From the NCBI GenBank assembly GCA_964619115.1, contig CAZUEB010000003.1:2764-39282 (forward strand): DNA of 36,519 nt. Reading direction: 5' to 3'. This document shows, piece by piece, positions 3,108 to 6,806 of the stretch. A program made the position numbers and the translations under genes. Position 1 is the stretch's first letter; each line of letters opens with the position of its first letter. Under the pieces are notes generated by a model. That model was given only the letters and a program-made list of their open reading frames with translations. It was not told the origin of the DNA and made no database searches. Source of the stretch: an uncultured Dehalococcoidales bacterium (GTDB lineage: Bacteria > Chloroflexota > Dehalococcoidia > GIF9 > UBA5629).

Positions 3108-5231
3108 ATGTATCCATCTACAGCAAAAGACGCCAATAGATATCAGCCCAATGAAGTGACAAAATTATCTTTTGATCACAGCCTGGTCCCACCATGCCAG
3201 GCTGCCTGTCCATTACATATGGAAATACGTGAATATATTGATTTGGTTGCCCAGGGAAGGATTATGGAAGCTCTGCAAGTGATAAGAGATGGCAATCCAT
3301 TCCCCTCTATTTGTGCTTATGTTTGCACTCACCCATGTGAGGACGCTTGTAGACGTAGTCAGGTAGACAAGTCTGTTGCTATTCGTGCGCTGAAGAGGTT
3401 TGCAGTTGAATTTGGCGGTGATAGAAGAGTCCGTGCTGAGGCAGAAACTACACATAGCGATAGGGTAGCTATAGTAGGTTCTGGTCCGGCAGGGATGGCC
3501 TGTGCCTACTATTTGCGGAAATTGGGTTATCCTGTAACTGTCTTTGAGGCTCATTCGGGTGTAGGTGGCATGCTTCGGGTAGGTATTCCGCAGTATAGGC
3601 TTCCCCGTGAAGTATTGAATACAGAAGTGCAAAGATTGATGCAGATGGGCGTTGAAATAAGGACGAATACGCGTGTGGTCTCATTGGATCTGCTGTCTGA
3701 CATGGGCTATAAAGCCATCTTTATAACTATTGGTGCTCACCAAAGTCTTAGGATGGGCATAGAGGGTGAGGATGGCCCCGGTGTAATAGATGGTGCCACT
3801 TTCCTCCGCGAGGTGAATCTTGGTCTCAAACCATCTTTAGGTAAAAAAGTTGCAGTAGTGGGAGGTGGTAATGTAGCAGTTGATGCTGCGCGTACAGCTC
3901 TCCGTTTGGGCGCGCATAAAGTAAGTATTCTCTACCGCCGTAGCCGGACAGAAATGCCAGCAGATCCGGTAGAAATAGAGCAAGCCTTGGAAGAAGGGAT
4001 CGACATTCGCTTCTTGGTGGCGCCGGTTAAATTAAAAAGGCGTAATGGGCAGTTAAGTATAAGTTGTATAAAGATGGAACTTGGCGAGCCTGATGCTACC
4101 GGTAGACGGCAGCCTATGCCTATTAAGGGCAGCGAATTCAATAGGCAGGTAGATGTACTGATTACCGCTATTGGACAGGCACCTCAGACTCCAAGTGATT
4201 TCCGTCTGCGTATCGGCAGAGGGAGTACTATTCATGTTGACCCAGTCACTCTTACTACAAACAGAGTAGGAGTTTTTGCTGGTGGTGATGCTGTTACCGG
4301 GCCGGCGACGGTAACCGAAGCTTTGGCATCTGGTAGGCTGGCAGCTTTTCGTATTGATGATTATCTTCAGCATAGATATCCGCGAGTTGACAAGGAGATG
4401 CGAGCACATTTGGCAGGCGACTTGCTGCCTGAGACTATAGAGATGATCAGAAAAATAGGTCGGCTTGAGCCTCCGATTCTTCCGCCTGAATCAAGAATGG
4501 AAGATTTTAAGGCGGTGGAGTCGGTCTATGATTGGTCAACTGCTGTTAATGAGGCAAGAAGGTGTCTTCGGTGTGGTATGGGAGCTGAGATTGTGTCGCA
4601 AGACAAATGTGCTACCTGCCTGAATTGTATAAGAGTCTGCCCATATCATGTTCCACGTCTCGATGTTAACGGTGCAGTTCAGATACCAGTCGAACAATGC
4701 CTAGCTTGTGGTATATGTGTTGCGGAATGTCCGGCGAAAGCGATAATTTTACGGAAGCCATATGACCAGAGGCAGGTAACCGATGAATTACGTCATATAC
4801 TTAATTCCGCAGAGAAATCGAAATTCAGGCCGTTCATCGTCGGTTTTTGCTGTCAATATGGACTTTTTGGTACTGGCACTCTGGCAAACCTGTGGCGGGA
4901 AGCTAAAGCTGGCATATGGATAGTGCCTGTCTTGTGTGTGGCAAAAGTAGAAGCCGAACATATGTTATATCCCTTTGAGATGGGCGCAGAAGGAGTTTTC
5001 ATTGCTGGATGTGGGGAACAATGCGCCAGAGAGAATACGGCTTTGTGGATTAGTCAACGTATCGGTAAGGTTAGGAAGATGCTAGTTCAGATTGGTCTTG
5101 AGCCTGAGCGAATACGAGGTTTTATGTTGAGCTCTACTAATAAAGATATTGCTCAGGACCTGGATAAGTTCGTTGAACAAATAACCCGGTTATATTTGAC
5201 CTCGACAATAGTGGAGGAGGTGAAAAGTTGA
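3108..5231 (+). CDS. Fusion oxidoreductase: GltD/NfnB-like FeS + FAD/NAD(P)H module, 2x[4Fe-4S] ferredoxin domain, MvhD/FlpD-like domain
   Basis: 707 aa; AGGAAG lies upstream of the ATG. The N-terminal Cys-rich helical domain is CQAACPLH...[15 protein letters not shown]. Dinucleotide folds are [17 protein letters not shown] and [17 protein letters not shown], plus VFAGGDAV. Two ferredoxin motifs are [12 protein letters not shown] and [12 protein letters not shown]. The C-terminal MvhD-type motifs are [15 protein letters not shown] and [12 protein letters not shown]. Confidence 0.85.
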   Translation: [707 protein letters not shown]

Positions 5232-5911
5232 TAGTTGCGGAACAGAAGCCTCTTGAAGCAATCAGGCAAATGATTGCTCCCTACCATAGGGTGTTGATTC
5301 TTGGCTGCGGTACATGTATGACGGTTTGTGATGCTGGCGGCGAACGCGAAGTATCCTTTCTCCATAGCTCATTACGATTGATACAGGCAAAAAGCGGGGA
5401 AGAGCCACATATCTTTTCTGAGTATATTTTGAAAAGGCAGTGTGACCCTGAATTTATAGACCTTCTTGTTGATAAAGTCAGTGATGTGGATGCCATTCTT
5501 TCATTAGGTTGTGGTATAGGGGTGCAAGCCATAGCTGAACGTTTTACAGATATGCCAGTATTGCCTGGCGTTAATACTTCTTTTATGGGCATGGCTAAGG
5601 AGTGGGGGGTCTGGGACGAACGGTGCGCTGCTTGTGGAGATTGCAGACTGGAGGATACTGCCGGTATTTGCCCTATTACCAGGTGCACCAAGGGAATACT
5701 AAATGGGCCCTGCGCCGGTGCCAAAAATGGTAAATGTGAAGCAAGTAAAGACATGGAGTGCGCGTGGATTCTCATCTACAAGCGACTGGAGAGGCTGCAG
5801 CAGCTTGAGAAAATGCGCCGATATTACCCGCCGAGAAATTTCCGCGCTGTCCCGAGGCCAAGGAGGCTTGTTAAAAAAGTTAGTGTTGGTGCAGGAGAAA
5901 GTGATGGCTAA
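5228..5911 (+). CDS. metV: MetV, methylenetetrahydrofolate reductase C-terminal-domain (FeS/zinc-ribbon-like) subunit
   Basis: TTG start at 5228 overlaps the upstream TGA (TTGA) and is preceded by GGAGGAGGTG. Signature: CAACGDCRLEDTAGICPITRCTKGILNGPCAGAKNGKCEASKDMECAW. Confidence 0.8.
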   Translation: MIVAEQKPLEAIRQMIAPYHRVLILGCGTCMTVCDAGGEREVSFLHSSLRLIQAKSGEEPHIFSEYILKRQCDPEFIDLLVDKVSDVDAILSLGCGIGVQAIAERFTDMPVLPGVNTSFMGMAKEWGVWDERCAACGDCRLEDTAGICPITRCTKGILNGPCAGAKNGKCEASKDMECAWILIYKRLERLQQLEKMRRYYPPRNFRAVPRPRRLVKKVSVGAGESDG

Positions 5912-6806
5912 TTCATTGTTTGAGGAGAAGCTCTATTCTGGTACGTTCTTAGTGACGACGGAAGTTGGTCCACCCAAAGGGGTCGATGTGTCAGAATTAA
6001 TTCACCACGTAGAACTACTAAAAGATAAAGTTGATGCCATCAATGTTACTGACCATCAGAGTTCGGTTATGCGTTTTCCGTCGTTGGGTGGCTGTCTGTT
6101 GGTAAAAGAATTAGGTGGGGAGCCAATTCTGCAAGTAACCTGTCGTGATAGGAATCGCCTGGCTCTCCAAGCTGATCTTCTGTTTGCATACTCCAGGGAT
6201 GTTCGTAATGTCCTTTGTCTTACGGGTGATTCTATTGATGTAGGTGACCATAGGGAAGCCAAGCCTGTCTTTGACCTAGATTCAATACAGTTATTGAAAG
6301 CGATAAAAACTCTGGAATCTGGAACAGATATGGCGGGCAACGAGCTTAAAAGTGCTCCGAAATTTTGTGTGGGTGCCTCAGTACATCCTGAAGCAGATTT
6401 CATCGAACCTCAACTCGTTAAATTTGACAAGAAGGTCGCTGCGGGAGCTCAATTCTTTCAGACCCAGGGCATCTTCGACCTAGCAAGTCTTCGGCGGTTC
6501 ATGCAATATGCCTCACAGTTTAATGTGAAAATCCTGGCTGGAATTATAGTGCTGGCTTCCGCCAGAATGGCTCGATATATGAATGAAAATGTCCCTGGGA
6601 TAATTGTCTGCCAGGCTATTATAGACGAACTTGCTGCTGTGGAGAAAGGCAAGGGACTCCAAAAGGGGATAGAGATTGCTGCCCGCCTGATAAAGGCAAT
6701 AAGGGATGAAAGACTATGCCACGGTGTACATGTTATGGCTGTAGGTAATGAAGGTATTGTGCCTGAAATACTGGAGGCAGCCGAATTAGCTGGTGTCAGC
6801 CGATGA
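5904..6806 (+). CDS. metF: Methylenetetrahydrofolate reductase, acetogen-type MetF
   Basis: The track ORF (5703) overlaps metV out of frame. The internal ATG at 5904 (MANSLFEEKLYSG...) follows GGAGAA and overlaps the metV stop (ATGGCTAA). The sequence is MetF-like throughout: VTTEVGPPKG, INVTDHQ, VTCRDRN, LCLTGD, AGAQFFQTQ. Confidence 0.85.
   Translation: MANSLFEEKLYSGTFLVTTEVGPPKGVDVSELIHHVELLKDKVDAINVTDHQSSVMRFPSLGGCLLVKELGGEPILQVTCRDRNRLALQADLLFAYSRDVRNVLCLTGDSIDVGDHREAKPVFDLDSIQLLKAIKTLESGTDMAGNELKSAPKFCVGASVHPEADFIEPQLVKFDKKVAAGAQFFQTQGIFDLASLRRFMQYASQFNVKILAGIIVLASARMARYMNENVPGIIVCQAIIDELAAVEKGKGLQKGIEIAARLIKAIRDERLCHGVHVMAVGNEGIVPEILEAAELAGVSR

Follow-up and report, generated by a model that had tools for sequence, protein, structure and literature searches.

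The locus lies on the forward strand of a 36.5-kb window, by which we mean the whole stretch of DNA analyzed, itself part of one genome. It consists of three genes: one encoding a 707-aa fusion protein (ORF at 3108..5231, ATG start), referred to here as X and located upstream of metV; metV itself (5228..5911, TTG start), encoding the 227-aa FeS subunit of a MetVF reductase (PF12225, 7e-35); and metF (5904..6806, ATG start), encoding a 300-aa catalytic flavin subunit of the acetogen/MetVF type (PF02219, 1e-33, residues 7-293). By its Pfam matches, X starts with a GltD/NfnL-like module, which is followed by a ferredoxin domain (2x[4Fe-4S]) and an MvhD domain. At 5228-5231, in the sequence TTGA, the metV start codon TTG overlaps the X stop codon TGA, giving a 4-nt gene overlap, and at 5904-5911, in ATGGCTAA, the metF start codon ATG lies 5 nt ahead of the metV stop codon TAA, giving an 8-nt overlap. 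Shine-Dalgarno-like sequences precede the starts of both MetV (GGAGGAGGTG) and MetF (AGGAGAA). The translational coupling of X, MetV, and MetF that had been proposed in a sequence-only reading of this DNA is thus borne out, with ORFs and both overlaps exactly as described there. Judged from its gene content, the operon likely encodes a methylene-THF reductase, MetV plus MetF, together with its likely electron supplier, X.

Further genes follow on the same strand. A response regulator with two receiver domains (6828..7664; PF00072, two stretches) begins 21 nt past metF, and methyl-branch genes lie beyond it, namely folD for methylene-THF dehydrogenase/cyclohydrolase (8423..9313; PF02882, PF00763) and fhs for formate-THF ligase (9401..11161; PF01268, 1e-211). 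An ADP-forming acetyl-CoA synthetase-like gene is found at 11191..12693 (Succ_CoA_lig, CoA_binding_2, Ligase_CoA_2). The folD gene order of the window recurs in loci L001/L162 and L163.

The fusion is a genuine single ORF. Contigs from four independent public metagenome runs span positions 3000-6900 without insertions, deletions, or joints, and homologs at 74-100% identity make up at least 119 protein clusters with lengths of 680-730 aa and the same domains as X. Both observations contradict an origin of X by assembly or frameshift artefact. Pfam places Fer4_20 at residues 28-102 (4e-19), Pyr_redox_2 at 119-409 (1e-32), a 4Fe-4S dicluster at 496-546 (2e-7), and FlpD/MvhD at 577-695 (4e-19), and the same search supports all of the assignments made earlier for the operon (GltD-like, 2x[4Fe-4S] ferredoxin, MvhD, MetV, and MetF). 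Residues 17-548 are covered by NCBIfam PRK12771 and residues 494-695 by the HdrA2 C-terminus model. The AF2 model of X has a pLDDT of 85.9 and a pTM of 0.84, and the N-terminal module has fold matches to NfnL, GltD, and DPD (TMt 0.77-0.80), as expected for a module of this type.

Within this module, the FeS domain of GltD/NfnL type (aa 28-102, 3189..3413; PF14691) has C30, C34, C73, C77, C81, and K96, together with C486 and C489, as predicted ligands of two [4Fe-4S] clusters. The Cys residues of the domain are invariant among 120 homologs, as are C486 and C489. K96 is itself invariant, with Lys at this position in 44/44 compact fusions, and it aligns with a Lys of NfnA of NfnABC and with a Glu of NfnSL. 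The FAD and NAD(P)H Rossmann domains follow (aa 119-409, 3462..4334; PF07992), with a GSGPAG motif for FAD and, at aa 252-284, an NADPH-type YRR motif in the pattern GGGNVA.D...YRRS..EMP. The YRR(T/S) motif is common to X and five PDB relatives (9n5u_A, 9bov_A, 8oh5_C, 4ylf_B, and 5jca_L), whose assignment as NADP(H)-binding comes from their structures or papers. Behind the flavin domains, a segment ending in RCLRCG (aa 459-490, 4482..4577) aligns with residues 12-42 of 4ylf_B and 15-46 of 5jca_L, and is collinear in 9bov_A and 8oh5_C. By these alignments, the segment corresponds to the helix and CxxC found at the N-terminus of canonical NfnB, moved behind the flavin domains as in StnC/NfnA.

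The ferredoxin-like domain of X (4593..4751; Fer4_10, Fer4_9, Fer4_7) contains two CxxCxxCxxxCP motifs (C501, C504, C507, C511 and C531, C534, C537, C541), all eight Cys of which are invariant, and is homologous to the C-terminal ferredoxin domain of MetVF-linked HdrA (44-54% identity). The MvhD/FlpD domain (aa 577-695, 4836..5192; PF02662, 4e-19) has a predicted [2Fe-2S] site at C582, C610, C635, and C639; these four Cys are invariant, and the Cys are matched in an alignment to MvhD 5odc_D. Altogether, all 20 predicted metal ligands of X are invariant in the 120 close homologs and almost fully kept in 28 cluster representatives at 35-69% identity.

Neither MetF nor MetV of the MetVF type carries its own NAD(P)H site, and both depend on an input module (PMC8760232). 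Consistent with such a core, MetV (PF12225) is encoded beside metF with the 8-nt overlap, and MetF has the PF02219 fold without its own NAD(P)H-type signature, scoring 64, 48, and 34 bits against the NCBIfam NAD(P)H-MetF models, whose cut-offs are 294-382.

The sequence-only reading had also raised how often the fusion sits beside metVF. It does so consistently: metV lies directly 3' of X in 37/37 distinct orthologous loci, mostly from Dehalococcoidia, and the adjacency is therefore more than chance; metF is downstream in 34 of the 37, the remaining contigs being truncated. More distant fusions (32-45% identity), from other phyla, adjoin metV/metF in about 20 of 35 cases, including anammox Brocadiia, Nitrospinota, Nitrospirota, Syntrophobacterales, and Actinomycetota. 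The compact X-MetV-MetF arrangement is thus common among uncultured anaerobes, and we found no description of it in the literature. Twelve distant fusions, mostly from Syntrophomonadaceae and other Bacillota, lack metVF, and therefore the fusion module is not tied exclusively to MetVF. These orphans group in an xLE-motif clade of their own (80% bootstrap), apart from the clade that contains the fusion of the window (99%).

The sequence-only reading had noted that hdrA/B/C genes are missing nearby, and this holds throughout the 36.5-kb window, among whose large ORFs we found no CCG/HdrB, HdrC, or HdrA-type genes. More specifically, no window ORF encodes a CCG or Fer4_8/Fer4_17 protein, whereas locus L006 has both HdrB and HdrC. 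The thioredoxin-reductase-like flavin domain of HdrA is likewise absent, as the only Pyr_redox_2 region in X is of GltD type, and X matches HdrA models only at residues 494-695 (the ferredoxin and MvhD domains) and is the sole candidate in the window. The operon and the 36.5-kb window also contain no RnfC or Complex1_51K match and no genes for NfnS/PyrK-like, NuoF-like, or second flavoproteins, and the window encodes no BfuB (NuoF-like, FMN), BfuC (NuoE-like), or NuoG-like domain.

With moderate confidence, we propose that X, MetV, and MetF form one soluble complex that acts as a non-bifurcating NADPH:methylene-tetrahydrofolate oxidoreductase. In the cofactor order that we infer, the FAD in the GltD/NfnL-like module would accept a hydride from NADPH, and single electrons would exit through the two [4Fe-4S] clusters of this module, of which the FAD-proximal one would be ligated by three Cys and Lys96. 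They would then move along the ferredoxin domain's pair of [4Fe-4S] clusters to the [2Fe-2S] cluster of the MvhD domain, and from there into the FeS clusters of MetV. The flavin of MetF would thereby be reduced, and methylene-THF converted to methyl-THF; the reaction could also run backwards. Physical contacts of this kind are known from Sporomusa, where pull-downs with MvhD bring MetF and those with MetV bring HdrA (PMC9430772). In NfnA/StnC of NfnABC, the NfnL-like FAD has been described as a non-bifurcating entry for NADPH into a [4Fe-4S] chain (PMC12018979). Such an entry seems the best explanation for the FAD of X as well, given that its best sequence and fold matches are NfnA/StnC, that it has Lys96, and that a second flavin is absent. 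As for the donor, the YRR motif suggests that X probably uses NADPH. However, this motif is also present in the GltD domains of Hdr-type loci, and the HdrA of Moorella, the only characterized Hdr-type HdrA, is reported to oxidize NADH (PMC9430772). Therefore, the motif does not settle the choice between NADPH and NADH.

The sequence-only reading had suggested a distinct NAD(P)H-linked reductase, possibly bifurcating. The NAD(P)H-type input subunit is favored by the domains and the synteny, but the bifurcating option has become less likely. It would have the NfnL-type FAD of X split the electron pair of NAD(P)H in a minimal flavin-based bifurcating or confurcating reductase, with the downhill electron passing via MvhD and MetV to MetF/methylene-THF and the uphill electron via the GltD-type clusters to ferredoxin. 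The GltD/NfnL fold does carry the bifurcating FAD in NfnSL (X matches 4ylf_B at 1e-81 and 5jca_L at 2e-74), the related type IV enzyme has been proposed to bifurcate, and the gap of ~120 mV from NAD(P)H to methylene-THF represents energy worth saving (PMC8760232). Furthermore, the four [4Fe-4S] clusters and one [2Fe-2S] cluster of X exceed the strict needs of a simple wire. Nevertheless, the Lys-type signature shared with the entry FAD of NfnABC and the lack of a second flavin make bifurcation unlikely for X: Lys96 takes the place of the Glu beside the bifurcating FAD of NfnSL, the closest relatives of X use the same FAD as a plain NADPH entry (PMC12018979), and the domain order of X is that of a single linear chain, with no NfnS-like [2Fe-2S]/FAD partner, HdrA TrxR-like flavin, or obvious second exit branch nearby. 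The contrast between Lys and Glu at the FAD-proximal cluster is a correlation from a few structures, and in NfnA the K165E exchange abolished bifurcation at a distant site (PMC12018979), so the meaning of this residue is not simple. It thus strikes us as rather improbable that X-MetVF represents a bifurcating, flavin-based methylene-THF reductase, the smallest of its kind; if it did, it would supply the long-sought energy-conserving step in the methyl branch of the Wood-Ljungdahl pathway in Dehalococcoidia, anammox bacteria, and others.

Two other readings concern the partners of X. Its MvhD domain might dock partners encoded elsewhere, for example HdrBC-like proteins, a hydrogenase, or a membrane complex, in which case the physiological donor or co-substrate would not be NAD(P)H alone. 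In Mvh-Hdr complexes, MvhD serves as an adaptor for docking and electron transfer, most of the MvhD in Sporomusa associates with the membrane (PMC9430772), locus L089 has GltD-Fd proteins with MvhD beside MvhG/MvhA hydrogenase and HdrB genes, and our gene search covered only 36 kb of the genome. We still hold such a larger complex to be quite unlikely, because the three-gene unit recurs alone with varied flanks in 37/37 orthologous loci and across phyla, and neither in the window nor in loci L001-L005 is it flanked by hdrB/hdrC or hydrogenase genes. It is very unlikely that X works on its own as an NADPH:ferredoxin (or other carrier) oxidoreductase, merely co-transcribed with a MetVF of the ferredoxin-dependent type II, even though reduced ferredoxin serves type II MetVF enzymes in vitro (PMC8760232) and the 12 orphan fusions might be read in this way. 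With NADPH alone, ferredoxin reduction runs uphill, the orphans belong to their own clade, and the 4-nt and 8-nt overlaps and strict synteny point to stoichiometric co-assembly of X with MetVF.

The published MTHFR scheme comprises four types (PMC8760232), with which the electron-input types listed in the sequence-only reading agree. X-MetVF fits none of them, with the Moorella Hdr type being the closest. In this type IV system (HdrCBA-MvhD-MetVF of Moorella thermoacetica and Sporomusa ovata), the MetV and MetF core is the same and MvhD is immediately upstream of metV, a position taken in our operon by the C-terminal domain of X; the order MvhD, MetV, MetF is also kept in Hdr-type loci. Moorella-type HdrA holds a GltD-type NAD(P)H/FAD domain (PMC9430772), and homology links the ferredoxin-MvhD portion of X to HdrA's C-terminal ferredoxin domain plus MvhD. 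Equivalent fusions of GltD and HdrA, with MvhD, MetV, and MetF behind them, occur in loci L006 and L018; such arrangements are common in Desulfobacterales and in some Dehalococcoidales. Therefore, the X operon is a pared-down relative of the Hdr type rather than an unrelated invention. The earlier idea of a distinct minimal reductase stands as far as the input subunit is concerned, with the refinement that the pairing of GltD with MvhD is already present in Hdr-type MetVF systems. By contrast with type IV, which has an HdrA of 1400-1500 aa and a separate MvhD, X is one 707-aa GltD-Fd-MvhD polypeptide, and its operon lacks HdrB/HdrC and the thioredoxin-reductase-like flavin core of HdrA, and with this core also the proposed bifurcating flavin. 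In terms of domains, X corresponds to the type IV input chain minus this core and HdrB/HdrC. The type III HdrA of ANME-1 and Bathyarchaeota, with an inserted GltD domain, similarly has an NAD(P)H module resembling GltD/NfnB alongside HdrA ferredoxin domains and MvhD, but keeps the HdrA flavin core that X lacks; in one archaeal locus (L013), MetV and MetF lie beside it.

Beyond methylene-THF reductases, NfnA/StnC of the Bfu-type NfnABC/StnABC complexes (PDB 9n5u, 9bov, 8oh5) are the best sequence (E 1e-105 to 3e-122) and fold (TMq 0.65) matches of X, and share with it the displaced RCLxCG segment, the Lys at the FAD-proximal cluster, and the YRR NADPH motif. Their FAD is a non-bifurcating NADPH entry that feeds a [4Fe-4S] wire (PMC12018979). 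They are fused to a NuoG-like domain and partnered by the NuoF/NuoE-like BfuB and BfuC, whereas X is fused to MvhD and partnered by MetVF. The bifurcating transhydrogenase NfnSL is different in that its FAD adjoins a Glu-ligated [4Fe-4S] cluster, where X has Lys96, and its NfnS partner carries a [2Fe-2S] cluster and FAD. Dihydropyrimidine dehydrogenase and the glutamate synthase small subunit, also fold matches of X, resemble the proposed scheme in leading electrons from NADPH via FAD and a [4Fe-4S] chain to a second, substrate-reducing flavin, but they have other catalytic modules, no MvhD, and a canonical, non-displaced N-terminal segment. The closest functional analogue, by analogy of subunit roles, would be the type III RnfC2-MetVF of Acetobacterium woodii, a soluble, non-bifurcating three-subunit enzyme in which a pyridine-nucleotide-oxidizing FeS flavoprotein feeds MetVF (PMC8760232). 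X would take the role of RnfC2, with the difference that the input subunit in A. woodii is RnfC-like and uses FMN and NADH, whereas X is GltD/NfnL-like, with FAD, probably NADPH, and an additional MvhD domain.

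The three overlapping open reading frames on the + strand follow the layout of the sequence-only reading: the fusion protein X (3108-5231, 707 aa), MetV (5228-5911, 227 aa, TTG start; PF12225) and MetF (5904-6806, 300 aa; PF02219). The stop codon of X is overlapped by the start of MetV in the TTGA at 5228-5231, the stop of MetV by the start of MetF in ATGGCTAA at 5904-5911, and a purine-rich, ribosome-binding-like stretch lies ahead of both downstream starts. Pfam bears out the MetV and MetF assignments as well as the GltD-like, ferredoxin and MvhD parts proposed for X, placing Fer4_20 at aa 28-102, Pyr_redox_2 at aa 119-409, a 4Fe-4S dicluster domain at aa 496-546 and FlpD/MvhD at aa 577-695. 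In NCBIfam, aa 17-548 correspond to nearly the whole of PRK12771, a 566-aa GltD-plus-ferredoxin family, and aa 494-695 match the C-terminal end of HdrA2, a natural HdrA-MvhD fusion. As had also been noted from the sequence, the HdrA core, HdrB (CCG) and HdrC are absent from the window ORFs, and no RnfC-like or NuoF-like protein was found in the window.

According to Pfam, metF is followed by a response regulator with two receiver domains, by folD and fhs, and by a gene resembling ADP-forming acetyl-CoA synthetases; X is preceded by genes for a sensor kinase and a LuxR-type regulator, and the remainder of the window consists of polysaccharide genes. Regulators bracket the operon: at 627-2916 lie a sensor histidine kinase-like ORF of 554 aa and the LuxR-type response regulator, and at 6828-7967 the two-receiver response regulator together with a 97-aa ORF (7674-7967) that contains several Cys but matches no Pfam family. 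A two-component system also flanks metF in another Chloroflexi genome (Sewell et al.). A promoter and terminator scan of the locus gave nothing above chance, and a search for RNA data on the locus turned up no run. Amid the glycosyltransferase and sugar-nucleotide genes, a gene of the 23S rRNA intervening-sequence protein family (PF05635) is present at 15973-16350.

The long ORF is genuine. Four independent metagenome runs from freshwater or lakes yielded Logan contigs that cover positions 3000-6900 with only a few base substitutions and no insertions, deletions or joints, and one of these contigs is identical to the window over 3457-6900. In the indexed protein database, at least 120 clusters share 74-100% identity with X; 119 of them measure 680-730 aa and show an identical Pfam set, and those that are named carry the label Chloroflexi or Dehalococcoidia 'FAD-dependent oxidoreductase'. 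The indel-free runs and the conserved length of about 707 aa rule out the assembly or frameshift artefact, joining separate genes, that the sequence-only reading had raised against itself. The sole apparently split copy (locus L081) we read as a sequencing error, because metV and metF on its contig are also broken by frame changes. A C-terminal query of X against the same database returned mostly fragments of its own family. Homologs of X are labelled 'formate dehydrogenase beta subunit' by JGI, but their context lends this no support, as metV lies downstream in every orthologous locus.

Loci from one-genome-per-species and metagenome collections were retrieved with X and then with an alignment of its ferredoxin-MvhD part, and GltD, Fd, MvhD, MetV and MetF were placed in them by tblastn. 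Among the 37 distinct orthologous loci (GltD-part identity of 58% or more), the majority from Dehalococcoidia or Dehalococcoidales metagenome-assembled genomes (MAGs), the adjacency proposed as a module recurs throughout: metV directly follows X in all 37, and metF follows in 34, the remaining three contigs ending before it. With these loci and the at least 120 protein clusters, X-MetVF is the usual arrangement across a large Dehalococcoidia clade and no rarity. When 1.8 billion cluster representatives were searched exhaustively without a profile, about 27 full-length fusions of the X architecture appeared among the best 150 matches.

Compact GltD-Fd-MvhD fusions at 32-45% identity adjoin metV/metF in about 20 of 35 loci, from Brocadiia (anammox), Nitrospinota, Nitrospirota, Syntrophobacterales, Actinomycetota, Fibrobacterota, Anaerolineae and other Dehalococcoidia. 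Twelve fusions, chiefly of Syntrophomonadaceae and other Bacillota, stand alone with no obvious partner. No metVF was found within 4-5 kb of the compact fusions with an xLE-type nucleotide-site motif from these groups (L199, L201, L208, L209, L215, L225-L227, L235, L238 and L239); the neighbours of the L199 fusion are an FMN reductase and housekeeping genes. In anammox loci of Brocadiaceae and Scalindua (L213, 3525-6737; L218; L219), metF directly follows the fusion and metV was not detectable; metV and metF are both present in other Brocadiia (L216, L217, L234, L240). A 673-aa distant fusion (39% identity; L087, 1011-8307) lies within a folate cluster in the order 5-formyl-THF cyclo-ligase, GTP cyclohydrolase I, folD, fusion, metV, purD and metF, with purD splitting metV from metF.

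The predicted cofactor ligands of X are invariant in an alignment of 120 homologs: C30, C34, C73, C77, C81, C486 and C489 for the GltD-type clusters, C501, C504, C507, C511 and C531, C534, C537, C541 for the ferredoxin domain, and C582, C610, C635 and C639 for the MvhD part. C69 is conserved too, yet it is no ligand position in relatives. With rare exceptions, the predicted ligands are also kept in 28 representatives of 50%-identity clusters (35-69% identity to X). The MvhD domain aligns to that of the solved Mvh-Hdr complex (5odc_D) with its Cys matched. An AF2 model built from 38 close homologs, a shallow alignment, reached a pLDDT of 53, and one from a diverse alignment a mean pLDDT of 85.9 and a pTM of 0.84. 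Foldseek against the PDB gave as best matches the NfnL-like subunits of Bfu-type transhydrogenases (9bov_A, 8oh5_C and 9n5u_A; TMq about 0.65), followed by NfnL of NfnSL, glutamate synthase beta and dihydropyrimidine dehydrogenase, and sequence searches rank the relatives in the same order. The segment of residues 459-490, with RCLRCG at its end, is aligned with residues 12-42 at the N-terminus of Thermotoga NfnB; in NfnA and StnC, as in X, such a segment comes after the flavin domains, and by this placement in the alignment X is a StnC/NfnA-like variant of the GltD fold. MetV has no solved structure.

The relationship to these transhydrogenases bears on whether the enzyme might bifurcate electrons, as the sequence-only reading had considered. 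In Thermococcus NfnABC, NADPH enters without bifurcation at the FAD in the NfnL-like domain of NfnA, and this FAD feeds a [4Fe-4S] chain; in all NfnABC enzymes the cluster beside it has three Cys and one Lys as ligands, and the equivalent cluster beside the bifurcating FAD of NfnSL has a Glu (PMC12018979). HMMER alignments place Lys96 of X opposite that Lys in 9n5u_A, 9bov_A and 8oh5_C, and opposite Glu in 4ylf_B and 5jca_L; Lys96 is invariant in both family alignments and present in 44 of 44 compact fusions. A second flavoprotein or NfnS-like partner is absent from the operon and the window. Because of the Lys96 signature, this absence and a domain order resembling a single wire, we favour a linear, non-bifurcating chain, retaining the proposed link to NAD(P)H and disfavouring bifurcation. 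Since the Lys/Glu rule rests on few structures, a bifurcating X-MetVF is kept as a minority possibility.

For the linear chain, the motif of the NAD(P)H site (aa 252-284, window 3861-3959) points to NADPH as the donor. X shares G.GN.A.D...YRR(T/S)..EM with five solved relatives to which NADP(H) is assigned by structures or papers, and Y-R-R-S is the form in most orthologs, as in the window. Roughly half of the divergent fusions (loci L194-L239) and a few members of the window's clade (P0233, L085 and L177; 69% identity) have C-L-E-(S/A/C) instead. An acidic residue at this Rossmann-fold position is a classical sign of NADH preference. On these grounds we favour NADPH for the window enzyme and NADH for the CLE forms. 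However, Hdr-type GltD domains adjoining MetVF carry YRR too, while NADH use is reported for Moorella HdrA (PMC9430772), whose GltD domain is the sole relative assigned to NADH; the assignment for the window draws on the other relatives. The motif split resembles a change of preference from NADPH to NADH within a single family. Two MAGs, JAKLPW01 (L176, L194) and CAYWDP01 (L165, L195), have two fusion copies each, one a YRR-type ortholog with metVF and the other distant; the distant copy of L194, on a truncated contig, is of the xLE type, and that of L195 is followed by MetV and MetF. Such paired copies in one organism may be NADPH- and NADH-linked isoenzymes, a possibility also suggested by the YRR versus CLE split.

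In the proposed mechanism, NADPH would reduce the FAD of X, and electrons would pass through the two GltD-type [4Fe-4S] clusters and the two of the ferredoxin domain to the [2Fe-2S] cluster of MvhD, and from there via the MetV clusters to the MetF flavin, where methylene-THF would be reduced. We infer the MvhD-to-MetV handover because the order MvhD-MetV-MetF is invariant in compact and Hdr-type loci, and because MvhD and MetF of Sporomusa pulled each other down reciprocally (PMC9430772). Given E0' values of about -320 mV for NAD(P)H and -200 mV for methylene-THF (PMC8760232), the reaction would be exergonic without energy conservation, like that of the Acetobacterium type III enzyme. The reverse direction would be possible if products are removed, and has been shown for that enzyme (PMC8760232).

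The electron donor of methylene-THF reductase (MTHFR) is the least settled step of Wood-Ljungdahl energetics, and the Hdr-type mechanism is unsettled because its six-subunit complex is hard to handle. X-MetVF could be easier to express and solve, and would reveal the electron transfer from MvhD to MetV. If it is NADPH-linked and non-bifurcating, models of carbon fixation and fermentation in these uncultured groups, namely Dehalococcoidia and, for related forms, anammox Brocadiia, Nitrospinota, Nitrospirota, Syntrophobacterales and Actinomycetota, would charge the step to NADPH with no energy gain.

Four MTHFR types have been described: MetF alone (I), MetVF (II), RnfC2-MetVF (III) and HdrCBA-MvhD-MetVF (IV) (PMC8760232). 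The literature covers these types, HdrA-GltD fusions and Chloroflexi Hdr-type clusters; in full texts, a scope outside which most subscription journals fall, we found no description of a GltD-Fd-MvhD protein partnered with MetVF. Fusions of a similar kind, HdrA/NfnB or 'type III HdrA', are known from ANME-1 and Bathyarchaeota (PMC9012536; PMC12054007), and metV was stated to be absent from every other Chloroflexi clade (Sewell et al., 2017).

Several of the compared loci show further variants. In Desulfobacterales (L011, L015, L018 and similar), a second, divergent MetF paralog (about 4600-5470; 37-39% identity to the window MetF) lies directly upstream of the GltD-HdrA fusion, besides the MetV-MetF pair downstream. 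The separate MvhD gene of the Desulfobacteraceae MetVF cluster L018 (about 9972-10394) has an in-frame TGA in its FCCNY*GY cluster motif, at a position that is Cys in 5odc_D, and probably encodes selenocysteine there. A 1020-aa NuoE/NuoF-like and GltD fusion (Complex1_51K, NADH_4Fe-4S, Fer4_20, Pyr_redox_2) of a Dehalococcoidia locus (L032, 3134-8310), followed by a PD-(D/E)XK gene, MetV and MetF, may be a further kind of MetVF input module. In L089 (3275-10391), a 914-aa GltD-plus-ferredoxin protein precedes MvhD and the small and large subunits of a NiFe hydrogenase, with HdrB upstream, which suggests Mvh hydrogenase as another partner with which the X-type NAD(P)H module is combined.

The window enzyme fits none of the four types and is clearly related to type IV, because matching GltD-HdrA/MvhD/MetV/MetF loci exist and because the Fd domain of X shares 44-54% identity with the Fd domain at the C-terminus of those HdrA. 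In L006 (Dehalococcoidales) such a type IV-like locus comprises HdrC, HdrB, a 1502-aa HdrA with an embedded GltD domain, MvhD, MetV and MetF; in L018 and many other Desulfobacterales a 1405-aa GltD-HdrA fusion is followed by MvhD, MetV and MetF. From these domain comparisons, X looks like the Hdr-type input chain minus the thioredoxin-reductase-like HdrA core, whether that core was lost from the X line or inserted to give the large proteins. A neighbour-joining tree built on GltD domains supports the window's clade with 99% bootstrap; all compact fusions group together in it as well, yet with only 10%, so that a single origin for them is not supported. The locus represents a fifth, three-protein MTHFR arrangement, in which the GltD, Fd, MvhD, MetV and MetF parts of the type IV chain are kept, whereas the HdrA core and HdrBC are dropped.
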